Part shown: positions 4,494 through 39,642 of the stretch, piece after piece | How positions within the stretch are numbered: position 1 is the first letter of the stretch | How the letters are laid out: each line of letters opens with the position of its first letter | NCBI GenBank assembly: GCA_964600255.1 | Contig: CAZRIX010000006.1 | Location: forward strand, 1 to 63,083 | Direction of reading: 5' to 3' | Source of the DNA: an uncultured Candidatus Saccharibacteria bacterium | GTDB taxonomy: Bacteria > Patescibacteriota > Minisyncoccia > Phycocordibacterales > PALSA-1337 | Length of the DNA: 63,083 nt | Position numbers and translations under genes: made by a program | The notes under the pieces: model-generated | Databases searched by the model: none | The model's input: only the letters and a program-made list of their open reading frames with translations | Told to the model about the DNA's origin: nothing

Positions 4494-7274
4494 ATGGAAA
4501 AATTTACACAGTCTAATGGTTCTCTGAATCTTGGTAGTCCAGAAGAGGAAATTGTTTTTCTAAGAAAACAATTGGCTGAAAAAGAAAGGGAAGTAATGCT
4601 TCGATCAGCAGAGCTCAATGTTAAACCTGAGAATGTCTCAGCTCATTCTACTACAGAGATTGTACGTGAATATAAAGAGATTCCGTCAAAGCAAATTCTG
4701 CATAAGGATTTTGCTATACCTACAAAAAATGTTGAGGGAATAGTGTTGGACTTGTCTCCCGAAGAGCACGACGATAAGATGTCAGAAATACTGGGCATTA
4801 TGCAGACACTTGGTATCAAGAATGCTCTAGACGTTGTTGCAAAGTTGAATGATCCACATATTCAAGATGACTTCGAGAGGTTTCTCGTACAATATTTGAA
4901 ATCAGGTCAGATGGTTGTAGGCATCGATAAGAAAGGCCCAGAGTTCAAAGCTCTCAATATGACTTTGTTTGAAATCACTTTGCCTGAGAAAAGTGATGAG
5001 GGTAAAGTAGAATCACTGAAACAAATAATTTCATCAATGGAGCAGTTCTATTCTGGAATGATGTCTGTAGATGATGAGCAGGGTACTGGTTACTATACAT
5101 TAGAACTTGCAGTGGCGAATCATAGTGACGACTTTTCATTTAACATCGCCGTGCATGATTCAAAGAAAAGTCTATTCGAGAAACAAATCCTTTCAGTCTT
5201 TCATAATGCGAAAATCATAGAGAGGAAGGATGATTACAATATTTTTAATGAAAAGGGTTCAACGGTTGCGTCATATGTGACTTTTGCAAAGAATTCAATA
5301 TGGCCTATAAAGACCTATGATCTTTTTGATTATGATCCCTTAAACAGTATTTTAAATAGTTTTTCTAAGATAAAAACAAATGGCGAGGGTGCTGCGATAC
5401 AGTTTGTTATAAAACCTCAAGACTCTTCTCATACAAAAAGATTTAAAAAAACACTAGAGGAAATAATGAAAGGGGAGAAGATTTCTACTGCGATTTCAAA
5501 TAATGCAGAAGGTATCAGTAAATACGTGGAAGGATTTTTTAAGGGAGTTTCATCGTTAGCGAAAAGTAGTGAAGATAAAGAAAAAGATAAGGAGAAGAAA
5601 AAAGAGGCAGCACAAAATGTAGACCAGATCAGTGTAGATCAGATTAAGTTGAAGATGCTGACACCTATTGAAGCTGTAAATATTAGAGTTATTTCTTCTG
5701 CGGAGAATGAAAGTAAGGCAAATGAGATTCTAGATGATATAGAATCAGCTTTTAATCAATTCGAAAATACTCACGGTAATGCACTTGTTTTCAAGAGAGT
5801 AACAAAGAATGATTTGAAGAAACTTCTATATGATTTTTCTTTCAGACTTTTTAATGAGAAGAATAGATTATTGTTGAATCTAACAGAATTAACTTCACTA
5901 ATGCATTTGCCTGCAACGGTTATCAAATCATCTCCTCACCTAAAAGTCGCAAAGGCTGGAAGTGCACCTGCGCCACTTGAGCTATCAAGAGAAGGTATAA
6001 TGCTTGGTGTAAATAGAGACAGGGGAGTAGAAACTAAAGTCCTAATGTCTCCAGAGGATCGATTAAGACATTTCTATGTTATAGGTCAGACTGGAACGGG
6101 TAAGACTACATTGCTGAAGAATATGATTACGCAAGACATCCTTAATGGTGAAGGTGTATGTATGATCGATCCTCATGGTTCAGATATTCAAGATATTTTA
6201 TCTATTATTCCAAAACATCGATATGAAGATGTGATTTATTTCGATCCTTCATATACGGATCGTCCAATGGCGTTGAACATGCTCGAATACGATAGAAGAT
6301 TCCCAGAGCAGAAAACTTTCGTGGTGAATGAATTGCTTTCCATTTTCAATAAACTCTTTGATATGAAGACGGCAGGAGGTCCGATGTTCGAGCAATATTT
6401 CCGTAACGCAGTACTTTTGGTCATGGAAGACCCAGAGTCAGGAAACACACTACTAGATGTTTCTAGAGTCTTGGCCAACAAGGCATTTAGAGAAATGAAA
6501 CTTTCAAAGTGTAATAACCCTATCGTTGTTCAATTCTGGAAGGAGGTTGCCGAGAAGGCAGGAGGTGAGGCTTCATTGGCAAATATTGTACCGTACATCA
6601 CAAGTAAGTTTGACGTCTTTCTATCAAACGACATCATGAGACCTATTATTGCTCAGGAGAATTCTAGTATAAATTTCAGAGAAATAATGGACAGTAAAAA
6701 AATATTACTAGTAAATCTATCAAAGGGTAGACTGGGCGATATCAATGCAAACCTAATCGGTCTGATACTTGTAGGTAAAATATTGATGGCAGCACTGTCA
6801 CGTGTAGATTCACTAGGTCAAAATTTGCCACCATTCTATTTGTATATCGATGAGTTCCAGAACGTAACAACAAATTCTATCTCTACTATTTTGTCAGAGG
6901 CTCGCAAGTATAAGTTATCGCTAACAGTCGCACACCAGTTCATTGCTCAGTTGGAAGAGAAAATAAAAGATTCAGTCTTTGGAAACGTAGGTTCTATCGC
7001 AGCATTTAGGGTTGGTGCAGAAGATGCTGAATATCTAGAAAAACAGTTTGCTCAAGTATTTACAGCAAAGGATATAATGTCTATCGACAACAGAAATGCA
7101 TACTTAAAAATGTTGGCGAATGGTAGACCAGTAAAGCCATTCAATATTGAGACTTTGCCACCACCAAGTGGAAACAAAGACATTGTAGATTCAATCAAGG
7201 AATTATCGTATCTAAAATATGGCAGAAACAAGGATGAAGTAAATACAGAAATAATGTCTAAGTATAGAAAATAG
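4494..7274 (+). CDS. VirD4/TraG/TraD-like P-loop ATPase with a large (about 480 aa) uncharacterised N-terminal region
   Basis: Walker A GQTGTGKTT, Walker B-like LYIDEFQNV, and ARKYKLSLTVAHQFIAQL, which resembles the coupling-protein C-terminal motif. No N-terminal TM helices seen. Confidence 0.6.
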   Translation: MEKFTQSNGSLNLGSPEEEIVFLRKQLAEKEREVMLRSAELNVKPENVSAHSTTEIVREYKEIPSKQILHKDFAIPTKNVEGIVLDLSPEEHDDKMSEILGIMQTLGIKNALDVVAKLNDPHIQDDFERFLVQYLKSGQMVVGIDKKGPEFKALNMTLFEITLPEKSDEGKVESLKQIISSMEQFYSGMMSVDDEQGTGYYTLELAVANHSDDFSFNIAVHDSKKSLFEKQILSVFHNAKIIERKDDYNIFNEKGSTVASYVTFAKNSIWPIKTYDLFDYDPLNSILNSFSKIKTNGEGAAIQFVIKPQDSSHTKRFKKTLEEIMKGEKISTAISNNAEGISKYVEGFFKGVSSLAKSSEDKEKDKEKKKEAAQNVDQISVDQIKLKMLTPIEAVNIRVISSAENESKANEILDDIESAFNQFENTHGNALVFKRVTKNDLKKLLYDFSFRLFNEKNRLLLNLTELTSLMHLPATVIKSSPHLKVAKAGSAPAPLELSREGIMLGVNRDRGVETKVLMSPEDRLRHFYVIGQTGTGKTTLLKNMITQDILNGEGVCMIDPHGSDIQDILSIIPKHRYEDVIYFDPSYTDRPMALNMLEYDRRFPEQKTFVVNELLSIFNKLFDMKTAGGPMFEQYFRNAVLLVMEDPESGNTLLDVSRVLANKAFREMKLSKCNNPIVVQFWKEVAEKAGGEASLANIVPYITSKFDVFLSNDIMRPIIAQENSSINFREIMDSKKILLVNLSKGRLGDINANLIGLILVGKILMAALSRVDSLGQNLPPFYLYIDEFQNVTTNSISTILSEARKYKLSLTVAHQFIAQLEEKIKDSVFGNVGSIAAFRVGAEDAEYLEKQFAQVFTAKDIMSIDNRNAYLKMLANGRPVKPFNIETLPPPSGNKDIVDSIKELSYLKYGRNKDEVNTEIMSKYRK

Positions 7275-9463: not shown

Positions 9464-10222
9464 ATGAAAATACCTATTTTATACGAAGATAAGGACATTT
9501 TAGCTATAAACAAGCCAGCCGGCGTGGTTATTCACCCTGACGGCAAAACCAAAGGCCCATTCCTTACCGACTGGATCGTGAAGAATTACCCCAAGACGAA
9601 GAATGTGGGTGAACCTGTAGAAACTACCGAATTTGGTACTATCGAGCGTCCTGGTATCGTACACAGGCTAGATAGGGATACTACGGGTGTATTGCTAGTT
9701 GCAAAAACAAAAGCTGGTCACAAGGCACTGAAAGAACAGTTTCAAGATCGAACTGTTGTTAAAAAATATGTAACTTTTGTTTATGGAGAAGTAAAAGATC
9801 AATTCGGAATCATCAATAGACCAATAGGGCGTAGTCCAAACAATTTTAGAAGATGGTCAGCGACACGTGGAGCGAGAGGGGAGTTACGCGATGCTGAAAC
9901 TTGGTTTACACTTCTTTCATATCGTACAGGATTCTCACTATTGGAGGTAGAACCAAAGACTGGTCGTACTCACCAGATCCGTGTTCACTTCAAGGCCTTG
10001 AATCACCCAGTCGTCTGTGATTCACTTTATGCTCCTGAAAAAATGGAAGAAAAGCCAAATGCGCTTGGTTTTGAACGTAATGCTCTGCATGCTTTTTCTA
10101 TAGAATTTACCAATTGTTTGGGAAAGAAGATATCTGTAAAAGCCCCACTCCCAAAGGACTTCCTTAATGCTATAGACGAATTGGGTATCAAGGAGGTTGC
10201 CAAAAAGAAGGGTCTATGTTAG
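9464..10222 (+). CDS. RluA-family pseudouridine synthase
   Basis: HRLDRDTTGVLLVAKT catalytic motif plus GRTHQIRVH. Confidence 0.8.
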   Translation: MKIPILYEDKDILAINKPAGVVIHPDGKTKGPFLTDWIVKNYPKTKNVGEPVETTEFGTIERPGIVHRLDRDTTGVLLVAKTKAGHKALKEQFQDRTVVKKYVTFVYGEVKDQFGIINRPIGRSPNNFRRWSATRGARGELRDAETWFTLLSYRTGFSLLEVEPKTGRTHQIRVHFKALNHPVVCDSLYAPEKMEEKPNALGFERNALHAFSIEFTNCLGKKISVKAPLPKDFLNAIDELGIKEVAKKKGLC

Positions 10223-10238
10223 ATTTGTTGTTACTTAT

Positions 10239-10673
10239 ATGGCAAACAATATCATTTCAGCAGTAAATATTGAGGAACGCAAAAATCTAGCAATCAAGCC
10301 AGGAGACACAGTTCGTGTTTGGCAGAAGATTCAGGAAAAGGGAAAGACACGCCTTCAGGCTTTTGAAGGTCTAGTTCTAGCTCGTAAGCACGGTACAGAG
10401 GCGGGAGCAACATTTACAGTTAGAAAGGTTATCGACTCAGTTGGAGTTGAGAAGATTTTCCCACTATACACACCAATGATCGACAAGATCGATTTACTAA
10501 GACGCTCAAAGGTTCGTAGAGCAAAGCTATATTTCGTAAGAGAGAAGGCAGCAAAGGAGATCAGACGTCAGATGAGAAGAATGCTTGCTATCGACAAGGA
10601 TCAGAATACAGATACAAAGCACACAGCATCTATCAAGGCAGAATTGGAAGGAAAGGAAGAAGCAAAAGCATAA
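10239..10673 (+). CDS. rplS: 50S ribosomal protein L19 with charged C-terminal extension
   Basis: IKPGDTVRVWQKIQEKGKTRLQAFEGLVLARKH...FTVRK. ATG 10239 chosen because the track start 10197 overlaps the upstream gene. Confidence 0.85.
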   Translation: MANNIISAVNIEERKNLAIKPGDTVRVWQKIQEKGKTRLQAFEGLVLARKHGTEAGATFTVRKVIDSVGVEKIFPLYTPMIDKIDLLRRSKVRRAKLYFVREKAAKEIRRQMRRMLAIDKDQNTDTKHTASIKAELEGKEEAKA

Positions 10674-10679
10674 AGAAAA

Positions 10680-10701
10680 GCCCCGGAACGGGGGCTTTTT
10701 T
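10680..10701 (+). terminator. intrinsic terminator after rplS
   Basis: GCCCC-GGAACG-GGGGC followed by TTTTTT. Confidence 0.75.
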
Positions 10702-10756
10702 GTTGAAGAGTATTAAATAATTATGATATAGTTTTGTAATTTACTATAATGACCGA

Positions 10757-11422
10757 ATGGGTATAAGAGGTCCAAAACCGAAGGCTAAAGTAAAGATCAA
10801 ATGGTCTGCAAGTTTTGCTTATGCAATCGGACTGATCGTGACAGACGGAAATCTATCACAGAAAGGAAGTAGTATTACCTTTGTATCTAAGGATATTGAA
10901 CAGATTCATAATTTTAACAAATGTCTGGATATAAATATTAAAATCGGTATACACCATTCAGGGTCTACTACTAACAAGGCACACAGAGTCCAATTTAAGG
11001 ATGTTCTTTTCTTTAAATTTTTAAATGGTATTGGTATACATCCAGCCAAGTCAAAGACTATTAGGGAAGTCAGGATCCCAGAAAAGTATTTTTTTGATTT
11101 TCTCAGAGGGTGTTTTGATGGTGATGGCACAGTCTACTCTTATTGGGATAAAAGATGGAAATCAAGTTTTATGTTTTATGTTAGCTTTATATCTGCTAGT
11201 GAATACTATGTACTCTGGTTACAGAATGAGATATATAAATTACTAAATATTAAAGGTCATATTACTAGTAACGGTAAAAAGATATGTCGTCAATTAAAGT
11301 ATGCAAAATCAGATTCCCTGATAATAATCAGGAAGATGTATGAGAATAAGAATTGCGTCCATCTGGGTAGAAAAAAGTTGAAAATCGATAAGATTTTGGC
11401 TATAGTGGGTGAGTGTGTATAA
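10757..11422 (+). CDS. free-standing double-motif LAGLIDADG homing endonuclease
   Basis: Two LAGLIDADG-type motifs, FAYAIGLIVTDGNL and FLRGCFDGDGTV, about 100 aa apart. The stop codon ends 1 nt before tRNA-Leu. Confidence 0.7.
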   Translation: MGIRGPKPKAKVKIKWSASFAYAIGLIVTDGNLSQKGSSITFVSKDIEQIHNFNKCLDINIKIGIHHSGSTTNKAHRVQFKDVLFFKFLNGIGIHPAKSKTIREVRIPEKYFFDFLRGCFDGDGTVYSYWDKRWKSSFMFYVSFISASEYYVLWLQNEIYKLLNIKGHITSNGKKICRQLKYAKSDSLIIIRKMYENKNCVHLGRKKLKIDKILAIVGECV

Positions 11423-34550: not shown

Positions 34551-34554
34551 GTAT

Positions 34555-34583
34555 TTGACAAATCACTCTCAATAAAGTACTAT
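34555..34583 (+). promoter_or_regulatory. near-consensus sigma70-type promoter of the P4 cassette
   Basis: TTGACA (34555-34560), a 17-nt spacer, then TACTAT (34578-34583). Confidence 0.55.
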
Positions 34584-34619
34584 TTTTCCATAAAGTTCTT
34601 CTAATCTTGAGGAAAGGTT

Positions 34620-35048
34620 GTGGCCAATAGAAACTATATTCTGGTTTTTGTCGGCCGCAACCTTTACCGGTTGTTGCTGTGTATGACCAATTCACAATTG
34701 ACTATCACTACCCCCATTCCCTGGAGTGATGGTTATGACGAAGGGGAATTCACAATCACACCAAGGACCTCCTCAGGCTTCAGTGGTGATGATTTGTTGG
34801 CGACTCTTCAGTCGCCAGGAACCCTGCAGAGCGAGGACACACACGGGGACCTTGAGGTCACGATGAGTGTCTACAGCGTCCGCGCTGCACATCAACCCGC
34901 AGACCAGGCGGTCCGGGTCCTGCAAGTGCCGAAACCGGAAATCAGCAACTTGGTGTATCATGCTGTCCCCGAGGCCAACGCCACACACATTGCCCTGATT
35001 GGAGCGGTGTTCCTATCCCTTGCTTGGCGTCGCTTTCGACGCCGGTAA
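34620..35048 (+). CDS. orphan protein with PEP-CTERM-like C-terminal sorting signal (P4, G+C-rich cassette)
   Basis: C-terminus is VPEANATHIALIGAVFLSLAWRRFRRR: a PE(P)-like motif, a 17-residue hydrophobic helix and an Arg cluster. GTG 34620 has GAGG 7 nt upstream but lies inside a 13-bp leader hairpin; the alternative start is ATG 34683. Confidence 0.5.
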   Translation: MANRNYILVFVGRNLYRLLLCMTNSQLTITTPIPWSDGYDEGEFTITPRTSSGFSGDDLLATLQSPGTLQSEDTHGDLEVTMSVYSVRAAHQPADQAVRVLQVPKPEISNLVYHAVPEANATHIALIGAVFLSLAWRRFRRR

Positions 35049-35058
35049 CCCCCCCCAG

Positions 35059-35096
35059 GACCCTGGTGCGCTTGCGCATCAGGGTCTCTTCTTTTG
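35059..35096 (+). terminator. intrinsic terminator of P4
   Basis: GACCCTGGTGCG-CTTG-CGCATCAGGGTC followed by TCTTCTTTTG. Confidence 0.75.
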
Positions 35097-35133: not shown

Positions 35134-38100
35134 ATGAACGAAAAAGATCTAAAGCAGAACCCAATAGATAACACTAGTCAACCAATCAAGTCAAAAGTCT
35201 CTGAGACCGAGGAGAAGATTCTGGAATATTGGAATAAGAATAATATTTTTAAAAAGAGCCTAGAAAAGCCTTCAAATAAAGGCGAGTTCGTATTCTATGA
35301 TGGACCTCCTTTTGCAACAGGGGAACCACACTACGGCCACGTTGTTCCTGGAACTGTCAAAGATATTATCCCTCGATACAAAACTATGCGAGGATACCAT
35401 GTCCGACGCCGTTGGGGGTGGGATTGTCACGGTCTTCCAGTTGAAAACTTGATAGAGAAGGAGCTAAAACTCGCTTCGAAGAAAGACATAATAGACTATG
35501 GTATAGGTAAGTTCAATGCCGCAGCACAGAATAGTGTGATGCGTTACGCAGATGATTGGAGAAGAATAATTCCTAGACTTGGTCGTTGGGTAGATATGGA
35601 AGATGACTATCGTACGATGGATGCAAGTTACACTGAATCAGTTTGGTGGGCATTTTCAGAATTGTATAAAAAAGGTTTAGTTTATGAAGGATTCAAGTCT
35701 ATGAATCTTTGTCCTCGTTGTGAGACAACACTTTCAAACTTTGAAGTGAGTCAGGGATACAAGGACATAACTGATATTTCAGTTTATGTAAAATTTAAAA
35801 TGGCTGGAGAGCTAAATACATTTTTCTTGGCTTGGACGACAACACCTTGGACATTACCAGGTAACGTTGCTTTGGCGGTGAATCCAAATTTTGAATATAT
35901 AGAAATCGCTAAAGACGGTAGCAAGTATATTTTAGCAAAAGATCTAGCTGCAAAAGTTTTAAAATTTGAAGGAGACGAGTGGATGTCTGGTAAAAAGATT
36001 TATAAAGGCTCTGAACTCGTAGGTAAATCTTATGAACCGGTTTTTGACTATTATGTAAATGATAAGAAATTAAAGAATAGAGAAAATGGTTGGAAGATCT
36101 ATAGTGCGGATTTCGTAACAACCGATAGTGGTACAGGTATAGTACATATAGCACCAGCATTCGGTGCAGATGACTATGATTTGAGTATAAAGAACAATCT
36201 ACCATTTATTCAACATGTAAGTACTGCTGGAGTATTCAAATCTGAAGTTACTGATTTCGCTGGTCAACACGTTAAGCCAAAGGATACAGCGGAGGAAAAG
36301 GATGCTCATCAGAAGGCTGATGTTGAAGTGATAAAGTATTTGGCAAAAAAGGAAGCTCTATTTGCTAAAGAAAAAATTATTCACTCATATCCTCATTGTT
36401 GGAGATGCGATACACCGCTTTTGAATTACGCTACTTCATCATGGTTCGTAAAAGTTACTTCATTCAAAGATAAACTTGTTAAAGAGAATAAGAAAATAAA
36501 ATGGACTCCGACCGAAGTGGGTGAAGGCAGGTTTGGAAACTGGCTAGAAGGTGCGCGTGATTGGGCAATCTCAAGATCTCGTTTCTGGGGAGCGCCTTTG
36601 CCCGTGTGGAAGAATGATAAGACTGGCGAGTGTAAGGTTATAAGTTCAGTTGATGATTTGAGAAAACTAAGTAAATCAAAAAATACATATTACGTATGTA
36701 GACATGGTGAGGCAGACAATAATATAAATGGAATAATAAGTTCCAAGTCTGACAATCCAGATCGTCTAACTGCCAACGGTAAAAAACAAGCTCTAGATGC
36801 TTCAAAGTGGCTCAAGGATAAAAAGATCGATCTAATACTCGTTTCGCCTTTTATCAGAACAAAAGAAACTGCAGAAATAATATCAAAACAAATTGGATTG
36901 AGTGGTGAAAAAGTTCTTGTAGAGGAAAGACTTCATGAACTAAATGGAGGAGTTTGGAATGGAAAACCATTCAAGGATTACGCTGCTCATTTTTCAGGAT
37001 TAAATAGATTTATCGACACTCCTGCCGGTGGAGAAAACTATGTAGATATAAAGAAGAGAGTAGGGGATTTGATCTATGATTTGGAGAAAAAGTATGTCGG
37101 TAAAAATATACTTCTAATATCACACGATACACCTATTTTCTTGTTGGAAGCTGTGGCCAAGGGTTTAGATCGCAAGCAAGCTATAAAGCTCAGAGGAACA
37201 GGTGATCACTATATCCAAAACGGACAACCAAAGGAATTAGAATTTAATCCACTTCCACACAATGCGGAATACGAACTAGATCTTCACCGACCATTTATAG
37301 ATGATGTAGAGTTAACTGATGATAAGGGGGAGAAATTGACTAGAATACCAGAAGTTTTTGATTGCTGGTTTGAGTCAGGTTCTATGCCTTTTGGTGAGGC
37401 TCACTATCCGTTCAACAAAGATGAATTCAATCCAAAGCCAGGTCCGTTCAGTAAAATACTCGGCAAAACAAAAGGTTATCCAGCAGATTTCATCGCTGAA
37501 GGTCTAGATCAGACTAGAGGATGGTTTTATTCCATGCTTGTTCTGGGTGTGGCATTGTTTGGTAAAACTCCATACAAGAGTGTCGTAGTTAATGGGTTGG
37601 TGTTGGCAGAGGATGGACAGAAGATGGCAAAATCAAAGAAGAATTATCCTGACCTAATGTTGGTTGTAAACAAGTTCGGTGCTGATGCTCTACGTTACGT
37701 ACTAATGTCTTCACCTGTCGTTCATGCACAAGACTTTTTGTTCTCAGAAAGACTGGTTGATGAAGTTGTAAAGAAGCACATAGGACGTTTGAATAATGTA
37801 GTTTCATTCTACGAAATGTACGCGACACCTGAGAAGGGAGGAAAGACAGAGATCAAGAGCTCAAATCCTCTAGATATCTGGGTAAAGAATCGCCTAGCCG
37901 AACTGACTTCTGATATAACTAGTGCTCTAGAGAAATACGAAGTTGATAAAGCCGCTCGTCCAATCGCTGATTTCATCGATGATCTCTCAACTTGGTACAT
38001 CAGACGTTCAAGAGATAGGTTCAAGGCTGAAGGTGACAAAGAAGCTGAACTAGATAAAGCTATGGCTTTGGCAACGACTCGTAATGTTTTGCTGGATTTT

Positions 38101-38694
38101 GCAAAACTGATTGCGCCATTTATGCCATTCTTGGCTGAGGATGTTTACCTGAGATTAAAAGGCCCGCTAGAAAGTGTACATCTTGAATCATGGCCAGAGA
38201 ATACTAAAGTCGATACAAAAATAAACGAAGCTATGCAGGATGCGAGAAAACTTACATCTATGGCTATGGAGGCACGTATGAAAGCAAAAATAAATGTTCG
38301 CCAACCACTCGCAAAATTAATAGTTAAAACCAAGTTCCCAGAATCTCTAGTTGAGATAATCAAAGACGAGGTTAATGTTAAAGAGGTGGTAACAGATACT
38401 ACTCTAACTGTAGATGTTTCTCTTGATACAAATATAACTCCAGAATTAAAAGAAGAAGGATTGGTTCGCGAACTGATACGTTCTATACAAGATTTAAGAA
38501 AGGGTAAAGGTCTAACTATCAAGGATAGGGTAGTGCTTGTTGTAGATACTGATAGTTCGGTGGCTGAATTGATTAAAAAGAATACTGCTGTCATCTCAAG
38601 CACAACTCTATTGAAGGATATCGTATTTAAATCTCTGTCTGTAGAATCAGTAAGTGTCGGAGAATATACTATAAAGATTGATATAGAAAAATAG
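35134..38694 (+). CDS. ileS: isoleucine--tRNA ligase carrying an inserted histidine-phosphatase (PGAM-like) domain
   Basis: HYGH (HIGH), KMAKS (KMSKS), WAISRSRFWGAPLPVW, CWFESGSMP. An insert of about 185 aa with RHGEADNN and LISHDTPI lies between the last two core motifs. Confidence 0.9.
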   Translation: MNEKDLKQNPIDNTSQPIKSKVSETEEKILEYWNKNNIFKKSLEKPSNKGEFVFYDGPPFATGEPHYGHVVPGTVKDIIPRYKTMRGYHVRRRWGWDCHGLPVENLIEKELKLASKKDIIDYGIGKFNAAAQNSVMRYADDWRRIIPRLGRWVDMEDDYRTMDASYTESVWWAFSELYKKGLVYEGFKSMNLCPRCETTLSNFEVSQGYKDITDISVYVKFKMAGELNTFFLAWTTTPWTLPGNVALAVNPNFEYIEIAKDGSKYILAKDLAAKVLKFEGDEWMSGKKIYKGSELVGKSYEPVFDYYVNDKKLKNRENGWKIYSADFVTTDSGTGIVHIAPAFGADDYDLSIKNNLPFIQHVSTAGVFKSEVTDFAGQHVKPKDTAEEKDAHQKADVEVIKYLAKKEALFAKEKIIHSYPHCWRCDTPLLNYATSSWFVKVTSFKDKLVKENKKIKWTPTEVGEGRFGNWLEGARDWAISRSRFWGAPLPVWKNDKTGECKVISSVDDLRKLSKSKNTYYVCRHGEADNNINGIISSKSDNPDRLTANGKKQALDASKWLKDKKIDLILVSPFIRTKETAEIISKQIGLSGEKVLVEERLHELNGGVWNGKPFKDYAAHFSGLNRFIDTPAGGENYVDIKKRVGDLIYDLEKKYVGKNILLISHDTPIFLLEAVAKGLDRKQAIKLRGTGDHYIQNGQPKELEFNPLPHNAEYELDLHRPFIDDVELTDDKGEKLTRIPEVFDCWFESGSMPFGEAHYPFNKDEFNPKPGPFSKILGKTKGYPADFIAEGLDQTRGWFYSMLVLGVALFGKTPYKSVVVNGLVLAEDGQKMAKSKKNYPDLMLVVNKFGADALRYVLMSSPVVHAQDFLFSERLVDEVVKKHIGRLNNVVSFYEMYATPEKGGKTEIKSSNPLDIWVKNRLAELTSDITSALEKYEVDKAARPIADFIDDLSTWYIRRSRDRFKAEGDKEAELDKAMALATTRNVLLDFAKLIAPFMPFLAEDVYLRLKGPLESVHLESWPENTKVDTKINEAMQDARKLTSMAMEARMKAKINVRQPLAKLIVKTKFPESLVEIIKDEVNVKEVVTDTTLTVDVSLDTNITPELKEEGLVRELIRSIQDLRKGKGLTIKDRVVLVVDTDSSVAELIKKNTAVISSTTLLKDIVFKSLSVESVSVGEYTIKIDIEK

Positions 38695-38723
38695 TTATTG
38701 GTTTTATTGGATCGAAAAATACA

Positions 38724-38965
38724 AAAGAAAAAGGATGCGTACCTTGCGATACGCACCCCATCGGACCGAGTCCCTTCGACCCTACGGTCCGGAATCGACG
38801 GGCCGCGCACCCGAGACGGTGCGCGGCTTTCGGGTCGTCCCTTGCACCCTCCGACCCGAAAAAGACCTAGACCTCGCACCCCTATGACTTGTTGAGGTGA
38901 CTTCAACTCCCCCTTTCCCCAAGGGTGCGAGGCCGGATCATTGCTGCCAAGCGTCAACTGATCCG
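38724..38965 (-). ncRNA. candidate structured non-coding RNA (about 240 nt, very G+C-rich), family not recognised
   Basis: Minus-strand TTGACA, 17-nt spacer, TAACTT promoter (38971-38999). Five perfect 7-10 bp stems plus a terminal hairpin with a T-run. No credible ORF. Two loops share AGGGT(GC/CG)AAGGGA. Confidence 0.55.
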
Positions 38966-39087
38966 ATAATAAGTTACCACTATATATCTATAGTGTCAAC
39001 TATTTTTAGCTATTCTAAATAGCATATAATAAGCGTGTCATTAAATCCTTAAATACAGCCATTTATTGGCGATTATATTTAATCAAA

Positions 39088-39642
39088 ATGCATCATGTCT
39101 ATACAACGAAAGCTTTTGTGATTCACAGCAGCCCACATGGAGAGTCTGGTAAATTTTTGCTACTTTTTACAAAAGATTTTGGGATGATAGGTGCTACAGC
39201 ACAGGGAATACGTTTGATTCAGTCAAAACTCAGATATCATATACAGGATTCTAGCTACTCTAGTGTGTCTGTCGTCCGGGGTAAGGAAGTGTGGAGACTT
39301 ACGGGAGCACAGGAGTTATCAGGAAAGAAAAGTAATCTCCTGTATCTGCGGGTTCTAAAGGTTTTGCGCAGATTGATTCCTGGAGAAGATAAGAATGAAA
39401 ATATATTTTCGATTATCGAAGAATTGTATTCGACGGATATTGTCGAGGGTGATTACGATACAGTAGAGGGTATTACAGTTCTTAGAATTTTGTACTATCT
39501 AGGTTACATAAGAGATAGTGAAGATGTCTCGGTTTTTCTAGGTGGTAACTCTATCAACTCGGATCTGATTTCTACCTTTAATGAACGCAAGACTAGACTG
39601 ATTAAAATCATAAATGAAAGTCTAAAGCAGACTCAACTATAG
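39088..39642 (+). CDS. recO: DNA repair protein RecO (short form)
   Basis: The N-terminal OB-fold pattern TKAFVIHSSPHGESGKFLLLFTKDFGMIGATAQGIR resembles RecO. Confidence 0.6.
   Translation: MHHVYTTKAFVIHSSPHGESGKFLLLFTKDFGMIGATAQGIRLIQSKLRYHIQDSSYSSVSVVRGKEVWRLTGAQELSGKKSNLLYLRVLKVLRRLIPGEDKNENIFSIIEELYSTDIVEGDYDTVEGITVLRILYYLGYIRDSEDVSVFLGGNSINSDLISTFNERKTRLIKIINESLKQTQL

Follow-up and report, generated by a model that had tools for sequence, protein, structure and literature searches.

We analyzed a 63,083-nt stretch of DNA (contig CAZRIX010000006.1, GenBank assembly GCA_964600255.1; hereafter, the window) from an uncultured Candidatus Saccharibacteria bacterium, and we discuss here the junction between its ileS and recO genes. 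The gene order at this locus is argS, a small G+C-rich open reading frame (ORF), ileS (35134–38694), a gap of 393 nt, recO (39088–39642), a gene for a DUF11 protein, and proS; these genes, like the majority of genes in the window, lie on the plus strand. The ileS–recO gap is the sole non-coding G+C island of the window, with a G+C content of 0.65–0.70 over 100-nt windows, compared with about 0.38 in the window as a whole. This island very probably constitutes a real, independently transcribed, structured non-coding RNA gene on the minus strand, that is, a bacterial small RNA (sRNA) gene that belongs to a new, narrowly distributed family. The predicted RNA is about 245 nt long (38721–38965, minus strand), its 5′ end being placed from the −10 element and its 3′ end from the U-run of the terminator. 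A preliminary description, made from the sequence alone, had taken the G+C-rich block for a structured RNA gene, and folding agreed with it: the minus strand reached −124.9 kcal/mol and was far more stable than dinucleotide shuffles (−93.8 ± 4.6 kcal/mol; z = −6.7). The plus strand of the same block gave a z of −5.3.

Homologues were obtained via recO: contigs of close relatives were fetched and their ileS–recO gaps were compared. We refer to the window's own lineage as W, to loci L111 and L113–L115 as lineage B, and to locus L112 as lineage C, L-numbers denoting the loci of relatives. The ileS loci nearest to that of the window came from metagenome-assembled genomes labelled Candidatus Taylorbacteria, Paceibacterota, or 'Saccharibacteria', and we take the bacterium to be a Paceibacteria/Taylorbacteria-like member of the Patescibacteria. 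In two separate assemblies of lineage W (L109 and L110), the RNA was identical to that of the window except for one A/G difference in the loop of its first hairpin, P1. A homologue was also found in the 310–335-nt gap of relatives whose recO is 79% identical, which form lineages B and C. The elements common to W, B, and C are AGTTGACA, a 17-nt promoter spacer, a −10 element of the form TGnTAnCTT, and hairpins P1, P2, P3, and P4.

The promoter was called by direct reading and by its conservation among the relatives; a simple promoter scan did not list it because TAACTT fails the −10 rule of that scan. The −35 hexamer TTGACA, a perfect consensus match, lies at 38994–38999 on the minus strand, where AGTTGACA is invariant in all three lineages, and it is followed, after a 17-nt spacer with a terminal TGG, by the extended −10 element TGgTAACTT (38971–38979, with TAACTT at 38976–38971). 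In lineages B and C, the element reads TGaTAGCTT with the 17-nt spacing unchanged, so the promoter pointed out in the preliminary description is both present in the window and kept in its relatives. Over the promoter spacer, we also read a palindrome, CACTATA-gata-TATAGTG (7-4-7; 38978–38995), and B and C have CATTAT-caatat-ATAATG (6-6-6) at the same position, with one arm pair altered on both sides. This palindrome may be an operator, possibly for a repressor.

At the other end of the unit, a terminator scan of 38400–39400 returned a single prediction, on the minus strand, with a stem at 38759–38732 and then TTTTTCTTTTG, in agreement with the intrinsic terminator proposed earlier for that strand. 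As a feature, this terminator (38721–38759, minus strand) comprises a 12-pair stem plus UUUUUCUUUUG and ends 27 nt from the ileS stop codon. No plus-strand terminator for ileS was predicted in the same interval. The G.U pairs of the relatives point in the same direction as these signals: P1 of B contains two, P2 contains one in B and another in C, and one more is common to all three lineages, and each would read as an A.C mismatch on the plus strand. A mismatch pointing the opposite way was seen in a single case, a C.A in P1 of C. Promoter, terminator, and minus-strand G.U pairs therefore fix the strand as minus, as had been assumed.

All five stems that had been listed for the block were re-derived pair by pair. 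From 5′ to 3′ on the minus strand, the predicted RNA begins with P1 (38934–38965), a CGGAUCA/UGAUCCG stem (38934–38940/38959–38965) with an 18-nt loop. It is followed by the P2 domain (38870–38933), the most conserved part, whose 12–14-bp stem has its core at 38872–38881/38923–38932 and which contains a G-rich strand (GGGGAAAGGGGG), a mini-hairpin GUUGAAGUCAC (GUUG/CAAC), and a CA-rich return strand with CAACAA. The remaining hairpins are P3 (38829–38860; stem 38829–38837/38852–38860; loop GAGGGUGCAAGGGA), P4 (38802–38827; 10 bp, 38802–38811/38818–38827), and, in lineage W only, P5 (38762–38791; stem 38762–38768/38785–38791; loop UAGGGUCGAAGGGACU). The two similar G-rich 13-mers noted previously, AGGGTGCAAGGGA at 38850–38838 and AGGGTCGAAGGGA at 38783–38771, each lie in a hairpin loop, as described. 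The bare 13-mer pattern is not rare, since two matches in 63 kb were reached in 22 of 100 shuffles; what is notable about the 13-mers is that two hairpin loops carry them. P5 has the look of a P3 copy that has diverged, as the core stems differ at two pairs, both compensated, and the GGG-N5-GGG loop is retained.

The stems are conserved among the syntenic regions of the relatives with compensatory changes, both in the RNAalifold consensus, where both sides had changed in 8 of 49 pairs, and by hand. The sequences of B and C also folded better than their shuffles (z = −5.1 and −4.7, respectively). The hairpins differ in how they are conserved. P2 is 89% identical across the alignment and is conserved well beyond the neighbouring parts: its 10-bp stem, CCUCGCACCC/GGGUGCGAGG, shows only wobble changes apart from a U.G to A-U change at the inner end, the G-rich strand follows the consensus GGG(G/A)(A/G)AAGGGGG, and GUUGAAGUCAC is invariant. 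A covariance model of P2, run on the window and 35 loci (252 kb), matched W, L111, and L112 only, and no copy turned up beyond the ileS–recO site in either the 63-kb window or the related loci (250 kb). In P1, the stem of B is GGACCAC/GUGGUUC, with one double change and two G.U pairs, that of C has one C.A mismatch, and the loop sequence is not conserved. The P3 stems are different in W, B, and C, yet each is fully paired; the loop is GAGGGUGCAAGGGA in W, UAGGGUUACAGGG in C, with GGG-N5-GGG kept, and an unrelated GUGAAGUGAAAAUGGG in B. In P4, three pairs have changed on both sides between W and B. Because P4 is directly followed by UUCUUUU in B and C, it would serve as the terminator there, giving an RNA of about 175 nt. 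P5 is absent from B and C, and the RNA of W is about 70 nt longer owing to P5 and an additional terminator; the 3′ third (P5 and terminator) is, by this comparison, a lineage-specific addition of W. On the same comparison, the conserved core is the P2 domain rather than the repeated loops.

This arrangement, in which a conserved P2 with large internal loops stands upstream of P3 and P4, P4 is the putative terminator in B and C, and the whole unit points into ileS, would also fit a riboswitch-like leader that responds to a ligand or factor through P2 and would control read-through of the terminator and antisense transcription into ileS. Riboswitch-controlled antisense RNAs are known from other bacteria. 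We regard a leader as barely probable here, as no riboswitch or T-box model in Rfam matched, no alternative anti-terminator pairing with P4 is evident, and in W the terminator is strong and the extra hairpin P5 intervenes between it and P4.

We found no known RNA family at the locus. A search of the whole window with Rfam 15 at gathering scores returned five tRNAs only, none of them at the locus, and at E ≤ 10 the interval 38650–39090 gave only chance-level matches, of which the best was a plasmid model, ctRNA_p42d, on the terminator hairpin (19.6 bits vs a cut-off of 50) and the others were below 17 bits. The related loci likewise gave no family match and only chance-level ones, such as RAGATH-34 on L111 (33 bits vs 60.7) and sodF sRNA on L126 (27.6 bits vs 46), both on terminator hairpins and both rejected. 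ARAGORN detected no tRNA or tmRNA at the locus or in L003, L111, L112, L120, and L121. The preliminary exclusion of RNase P RNA, tmRNA, and signal recognition particle (SRP) RNA is therefore upheld by the Rfam and ARAGORN tests. Specifically, ARAGORN found neither tRNA-like ends nor a tag frame and the Rfam tmRNA model was silent at the locus; SRP RNA, either 4.5S or large, gave no covariance-model match, and its GGAA...AGCA arrangement does not occur in the sequence; and 6S RNA gave no Rfam match, the conserved fold being a chain of separate hairpins and not a single rod. When 11 relatives' loci with G+C islands were searched with Rfam for a canonical RNase P RNA near ileS, only one tmRNA and one tRNA were detected. 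One of these hits, in the distant relative L073 (3318–3686, minus strand), is a canonical tmRNA that scored 109 bits and lies a few kb upstream of ileS; its detection shows that the standard models work on this group.

Searches for further copies by sequence were also negative: nhmmer with the RNA gave no match in 80 ileS loci, blastn gave none in phage and plasmid collections, and the core pattern GGGNNAAGGGGG-N1-2-GUUGAAGUCAC had none in metagenome contigs. The loop-motif pattern matched 28 loci in viral contigs, all of them tandem repeats or chance occurrences and none in paired hairpins. In addition, the locus does not appear to be coding. No reading frame is conserved among the homologues, as the preliminary description's lack of a credible ORF would imply. 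The spacing between the conserved blocks GUCAC and GGGUG is 15, 16, and 12 nt, which amounts to indels of 1 nt and 4 nt; the AUG/GUG frame that runs through P2 stops at 12 (W), 21 (C), and 38 (B) codons, and the differences alter amino acids. The long minus-strand ORF at 38957–38145 and the short plus-strand ORFs are not conserved.

We then compared the same junction in other clades. Of some 70 related loci, about 50 have ileS directly adjoining or overlapping recO (gaps of −41 to +26 nt), and this is also the state in the sister group of W, B, and C, whose recO is 71–73% identical. Elsewhere, the junction holds minus-strand units: units of about 250–410 nt occur in L003/L122/L123, L120, and L121 (L003 3459–3715; L120 1098–1404; L121 988–1404; L123 1115–1404), and others in L124 (1–382), L126 (about 490 nt; 915–1412), L129 (about 370 nt; 1028–1405), L137 (about 340 nt; 1069–1408), L139 (about 250 nt; 1155–1410), and, at about 110–130 nt, L135/L136 and L132 (L135 1323–1462; L132 1–130). 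All of them have a G+C-rich body and a terminator adjoining the ileS stop codon, and all except L135/L136 have a promoter of the form TTGAC(A/T) plus an extended −10 TGnTAnnnT; L135/L136 lack TTGAC and have just an extended −10-like TGCTAGCAT. Within subgroups, the bodies have blocks in common, for instance a CGGCGC..GCGCCGA hairpin with AAAUGG after it, and CCGCCGAAAGGCAAUGGAGA; across the whole set, alignment identity is 40%. In the consensus fold of the L003 group, 12 of 49 pairs were doubly changed. Rfam gave no match to these RNAs, and BLAST detected no significant similarity between them and the window-type RNA. The P1 loop (AGUUGACGCUUGG) agrees at 13 of 16 positions with a stretch in the 5′ region of L124, and L139 contains a comparable string; both resemblances are at about chance level, and homology is not claimed on their account. 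The presence of an RNA at the junction is patchy on the recO tree; for example, L124 has one and its close sister L125 has a 17-nt gap. At the junction of L007, a gene for a 574-aa protein with a Kre9/KNH Ig-like domain (9505–11226, minus strand) stands in place of an RNA. The AT-rich hairpin upstream of recO (AAATGGCTnTATTTA...) is shared and is also present in L007; because it occurs there without an RNA gene, we assign it to recO and not to the RNA.

The junction is, judging from these predicted units, a recurrent home of strongly expressed structured RNAs that look unrelated to one another, and homology of the window RNA to the others cannot be shown from the sequences compared. It might be that in Paceibacteria the junction encodes one fast-evolving class of abundant, G+C-rich structured RNAs of 100–500 nt with a shared promoter design, outside Rfam, of which the window RNA would be a compact member and thus a new functional RNA specific to the Candidate Phyla Radiation (CPR); we consider this rather unlikely. 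If true, the class could be part of a ribonucleoprotein or an extremely reduced catalytic or housekeeping RNA.

The patchy distribution, with sister lineages that lack the RNA, also bears on the idea that the island is a non-functional or selfish insert, namely G+C-rich foreign or remnant DNA with chance promoter- and terminator-like signals. The junction is an insertion hot spot, occupied by protein genes in other relatives, and the composition of the island is unlike that of the host genome. However, this high G+C content is maintained in an A+T-rich genome across lineages with recO only 79% identical, the stems have changed in a compensatory manner, and the promoter is invariant and P2 nearly so. 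Moreover, neither the 63-kb window nor 250 kb of related loci contained a second copy, and the phage and plasmid collections contained no match. We therefore consider an insert improbable.

We weighed in the same way whether the RNA could be a housekeeping RNA that is strongly reduced or degenerate, in particular a diverged RNase P RNA. RNase P RNA went undetected at default cut-offs in 10 of 35 complete CPR genomes, and very low scores had to be accepted to recover diverged CPR forms missing several helices (Lui et al. 2021, PMC8172020); CPR forms are thus reported to escape Rfam. The promoter of the window RNA is also of the strong type expected for stable RNAs. Strings resembling conserved region I (CR-I) of RNase P RNA can be picked out by eye in larger junction RNAs (CGAAAGUCA in L124 and GGAGAAAGUCC in L003), with distal complements AAGCCA/UGGCUU in L126 and AGUCCCCC/GGGGGAUU in L003, and in the window RNA GGGGAAAGGGGG lies similarly far from the 5′ end. 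Against this, neither RF00010 nor RF00011 matched 38650–39090 at gathering score or at E ≤ 10, a search that stopped at E ≤ 10 and did not reach thresholds down to 5 bits as in Lui et al. The RNase P, SRP, 6S, and tmRNA models gave no match at E ≤ 10 in the window RNA, L003, and L126, or at E ≤ 1–5 in ten other loci, and ARAGORN was negative. The P4 pseudoknot that CR-I (GAGGAAAGUCC) forms with CR-V (..GGCUUA) has no counterpart: GGGGAAAGGGGG is the sole CR-I-like string, a complement of the CCCCCUU type is absent throughout the RNA, and no sequence of the window RNA is complementary to AAAGGGGG so as to form this helix. The 5′/3′ closing helix P1 of RNase P RNA is absent in B and C, where the RNA is about 175 nt long and its 3′ end is merely the P4 terminator hairpin; in W, 5′/3′ pairing is possible only via the lineage-specific extension. 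RNase P RNAs typically measure about 300–400 nt, and the smallest known forms at least about 200 nt, so the RNA of B and C is below any known bacterial RNase P RNA. The RNase P reading of the larger junction RNAs was rejected as well, because the strings were found by eye only, the helix order is inconsistent, and no model matched: in L126, the CR-IV-like and CR-V-like strings are adjacent and leave no room for P2′ and J2/4, and in the consensus fold of the L003 group, the 3′ domain is closed from within and not through a 5′/3′ P1. Furthermore, the gene is lacking at the junction in sister lineages. Taken together, a degenerate housekeeping RNA, RNase P RNA included, is a very improbable identity for this RNA.

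The main rival is a cis-acting antisense or insulator role. The convergent RNA would be complementary to ileS read-through transcripts, and pairing or polymerase collision would end or cleave the ileS message and uncouple recO, which keeps its own −10 element before the ATG; loop–loop contacts of the mirrored hairpins would start the pairing. In keeping with this, ileS has no plus-strand terminator, the sole one in 38400–39400 being on the minus strand, and the RNA therefore probably overlaps read-through transcripts, to which it would be fully complementary. Since ileS and recO abut or overlap in about 50 relatives, the insert is what parts them. Several clades share the orientation, the promoter design, and the terminator by the ileS stop codon while their bodies are almost unalignable (40% identity), which is expected if the sole 'target' is the complementary strand, because that strand co-varies automatically. 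The plus strand also folds well, as noted. On the other hand, simple terminator hairpins uncouple the genes in other relatives (a plain hairpin parts ileS from recO in L045, L049, and L031), and a G+C-rich structure of 175–500 nt exceeds that need. The RNA does not reach into any functional part of ileS or recO, the sequence conservation of P2 is not required by a purely self-complementary system, and the G.U pairs favour folding of the minus strand only. A cis role thus has an appreciable chance of being correct, although we hold it to be unlikely.

We favour an RNA gene whose product acts in trans. The RNA would be abundant and stable, and it would expose G-rich single strands, namely the internal loop of P2 (GGGGAAAGGGGG) and the GGG-N5-GGG loops of P3 and P5, to a binding partner that could be an RNA-binding protein or a pyrimidine-rich RNA. 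As in decoy or sponge RNAs, the design would be modular, with hairpins that can be duplicated (P5 in W) or lost (P3, degenerate in B). A plain hairpin suffices elsewhere to part ileS from recO, and here a structured product of 175–245 nt would be made from a strong promoter, which suggests a function of the RNA itself; P2, being conserved in sequence, and the G.U pairs, which favour the minus strand only, both speak for a role of the RNA in its folded form. In addition, members of the CPR (Patescibacteria) have tiny genomes with very little non-coding DNA, and a gene of 175–245 nt kept with compensatory changes is therefore unlikely to be idle. Taken as a whole, that is, as a real RNA gene together with a stable trans-acting mechanism through the exposed G-rich strands and P2, we would put the probability of this reading at roughly 0.35.

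The form that such a mechanism might take was considered further. The preliminary description had suggested a mimic of the ribosome or of the anti-Shine–Dalgarno (anti-SD) sequence, an idea that did not hold up, as the complementarity was not above that of dinucleotide shuffles and the SD sequence is scarcely used in this genome. The G-rich strands paired with a generic 16S tail (the organism's own 16S gene is not in the window) at about −11 to −12 kcal/mol; for the best duplex, at −11 kcal/mol, the shuffle mean was −10.2 kcal/mol and 29% of shuffles were equally good. The other RNAs at the ileS–recO junction also lacked anti-SD enrichment. Upstream of the gene starts of the window, the mean anti-SD duplex energy was −1.3 vs a background of −2.5, and many ATGs lie 6–9 nt after TGnTATAAT, for example at 4494, 13006, 14390, 16185, 17090, 20365, 20961, and 39670. 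This suggests that leaderless mRNAs are widespread in this organism. A −10 element 6–9 nt before the ATG thus recurs at many window genes, and TATATT (39074–39079, plus strand; read directly), which stands 8 nt before the recO ATG and is divergent from the RNA promoter, is likely the −10 of a leaderless recO mRNA. Titration of a protein in the CsrB/RsmZ manner, also suggested in the preliminary description, amounts here to a resemblance: the modular architecture fits, but the motif is not that of Csr RNAs. W has two AGGGA-containing loops and one G-rich internal loop, and of the relatives C retains the motif and B has lost it.

Several observations weigh against the trans-acting reading. The count of strong anti-SD windows equals the shuffle mean, and anti-SD complementarity does not exceed that of shuffles. 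A scan of 20 small proteins encoded in the 63-kb window revealed neither CsrA nor Hfq. By a rough hand estimate, the frequency of GGA-type motifs is about what composition predicts. Sites elsewhere in the window complementary to the RNA over 10-mers numbered 10 vs about 27 expected, that is, without excess. The P3 loop diverges between W and C about as fast as the P3 stem, and lineage B has lost the G-rich loop motif. The covariation statistics are weak because there are only three lineages, two of them mutually close. Finally, a constant site and orientation at the ileS–recO junction is likewise compatible with a cis role.

Two observations on neighbouring genes are added here. The isoleucyl-tRNA synthetase IleRS (35134–38694, 1186 aa) carries a histidine-phosphatase domain (PF00300, E = 2e-30, residues 520–686) inside its class I catalytic core, and the domain is also listed for IleRS of L109, L118, and L120. 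A second G+C-rich island (34553–35095) corresponds to a 142-aa ORF (34620–35048) with its own TTGACA-17-TACTAT promoter, a strong terminator, and an SD-like GAGGAAAGG, one of few in the window. The C-terminus of this ORF gave a weak PEP-CTERM-like match (17.6 bits, below the cut-off of 20.7), and no homologue was present in any fetched locus.

To our knowledge, almost no regulatory or structural RNAs are known in CPR/Patescibacteria beyond rRNA, tRNA, tmRNA, SRP RNA, and an often diverged RNase P RNA, and we know of nothing else relevant in the literature that we searched. The present finding offers a candidate RNA with defined ends and strand, a conserved P2 core, and variable modules, and it marks a genomic site where several clades keep different RNAs outside Rfam. 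Should the RNA turn out to act as a decoy, to uncouple ileS from recO as an antisense RNA, or to be a reduced housekeeping RNA, each of these outcomes would give new insight into gene control in organisms that seem to depend mostly on leaderless mRNAs free of SD sequences.

Among known systems, 6C RNA of Actinobacteria resembles the window RNA in that the loops are C-rich when read on the plus strand (UCCCUUGCACCCU and UCCCUUCGACCCU), whereas the promoter, terminator, and G.U pairs are all on the minus strand, the 6C model gave no match, and the phylum is another one. The CPR RNase P RNAs (PMC8172020) share a promoter of the stable-RNA type, high G+C content, scores below normal Rfam thresholds, and a purine-rich GGGGAAAG in the 5′ third; in contrast, the window RNA has no complement to form the P4 of RNase P, is only 175–245 nt long, matches no model at E ≤ 10, and has no 5′/3′ closing helix in B and C. 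With CopA, RNAI, and chromosomal convergent antisense RNAs, it shares convergence with a gene, complementarity to a read-through transcript, and stem-loops held by compensatory change amid fast sequence drift. In contrast to these RNAs, it lies outside the coding and ribosome-binding regions of the sense genes, its length and G+C content go far beyond what such a role needs, and the sequence of its P2 is conserved. From CsrB, RsmY, and RsmZ, it differs in its GGG-N5-GGG loops in place of single A(N)GGA motifs, in having two to three sites, which are lost in B, and in matching no Rfam Csr/Rsm model. It is nevertheless like them in being an independent sRNA gene with its own predicted promoter and terminator, in its chain of hairpins with purine-rich loop motifs, and in a number of modules that varies between close lineages, P5 being present here only in W.

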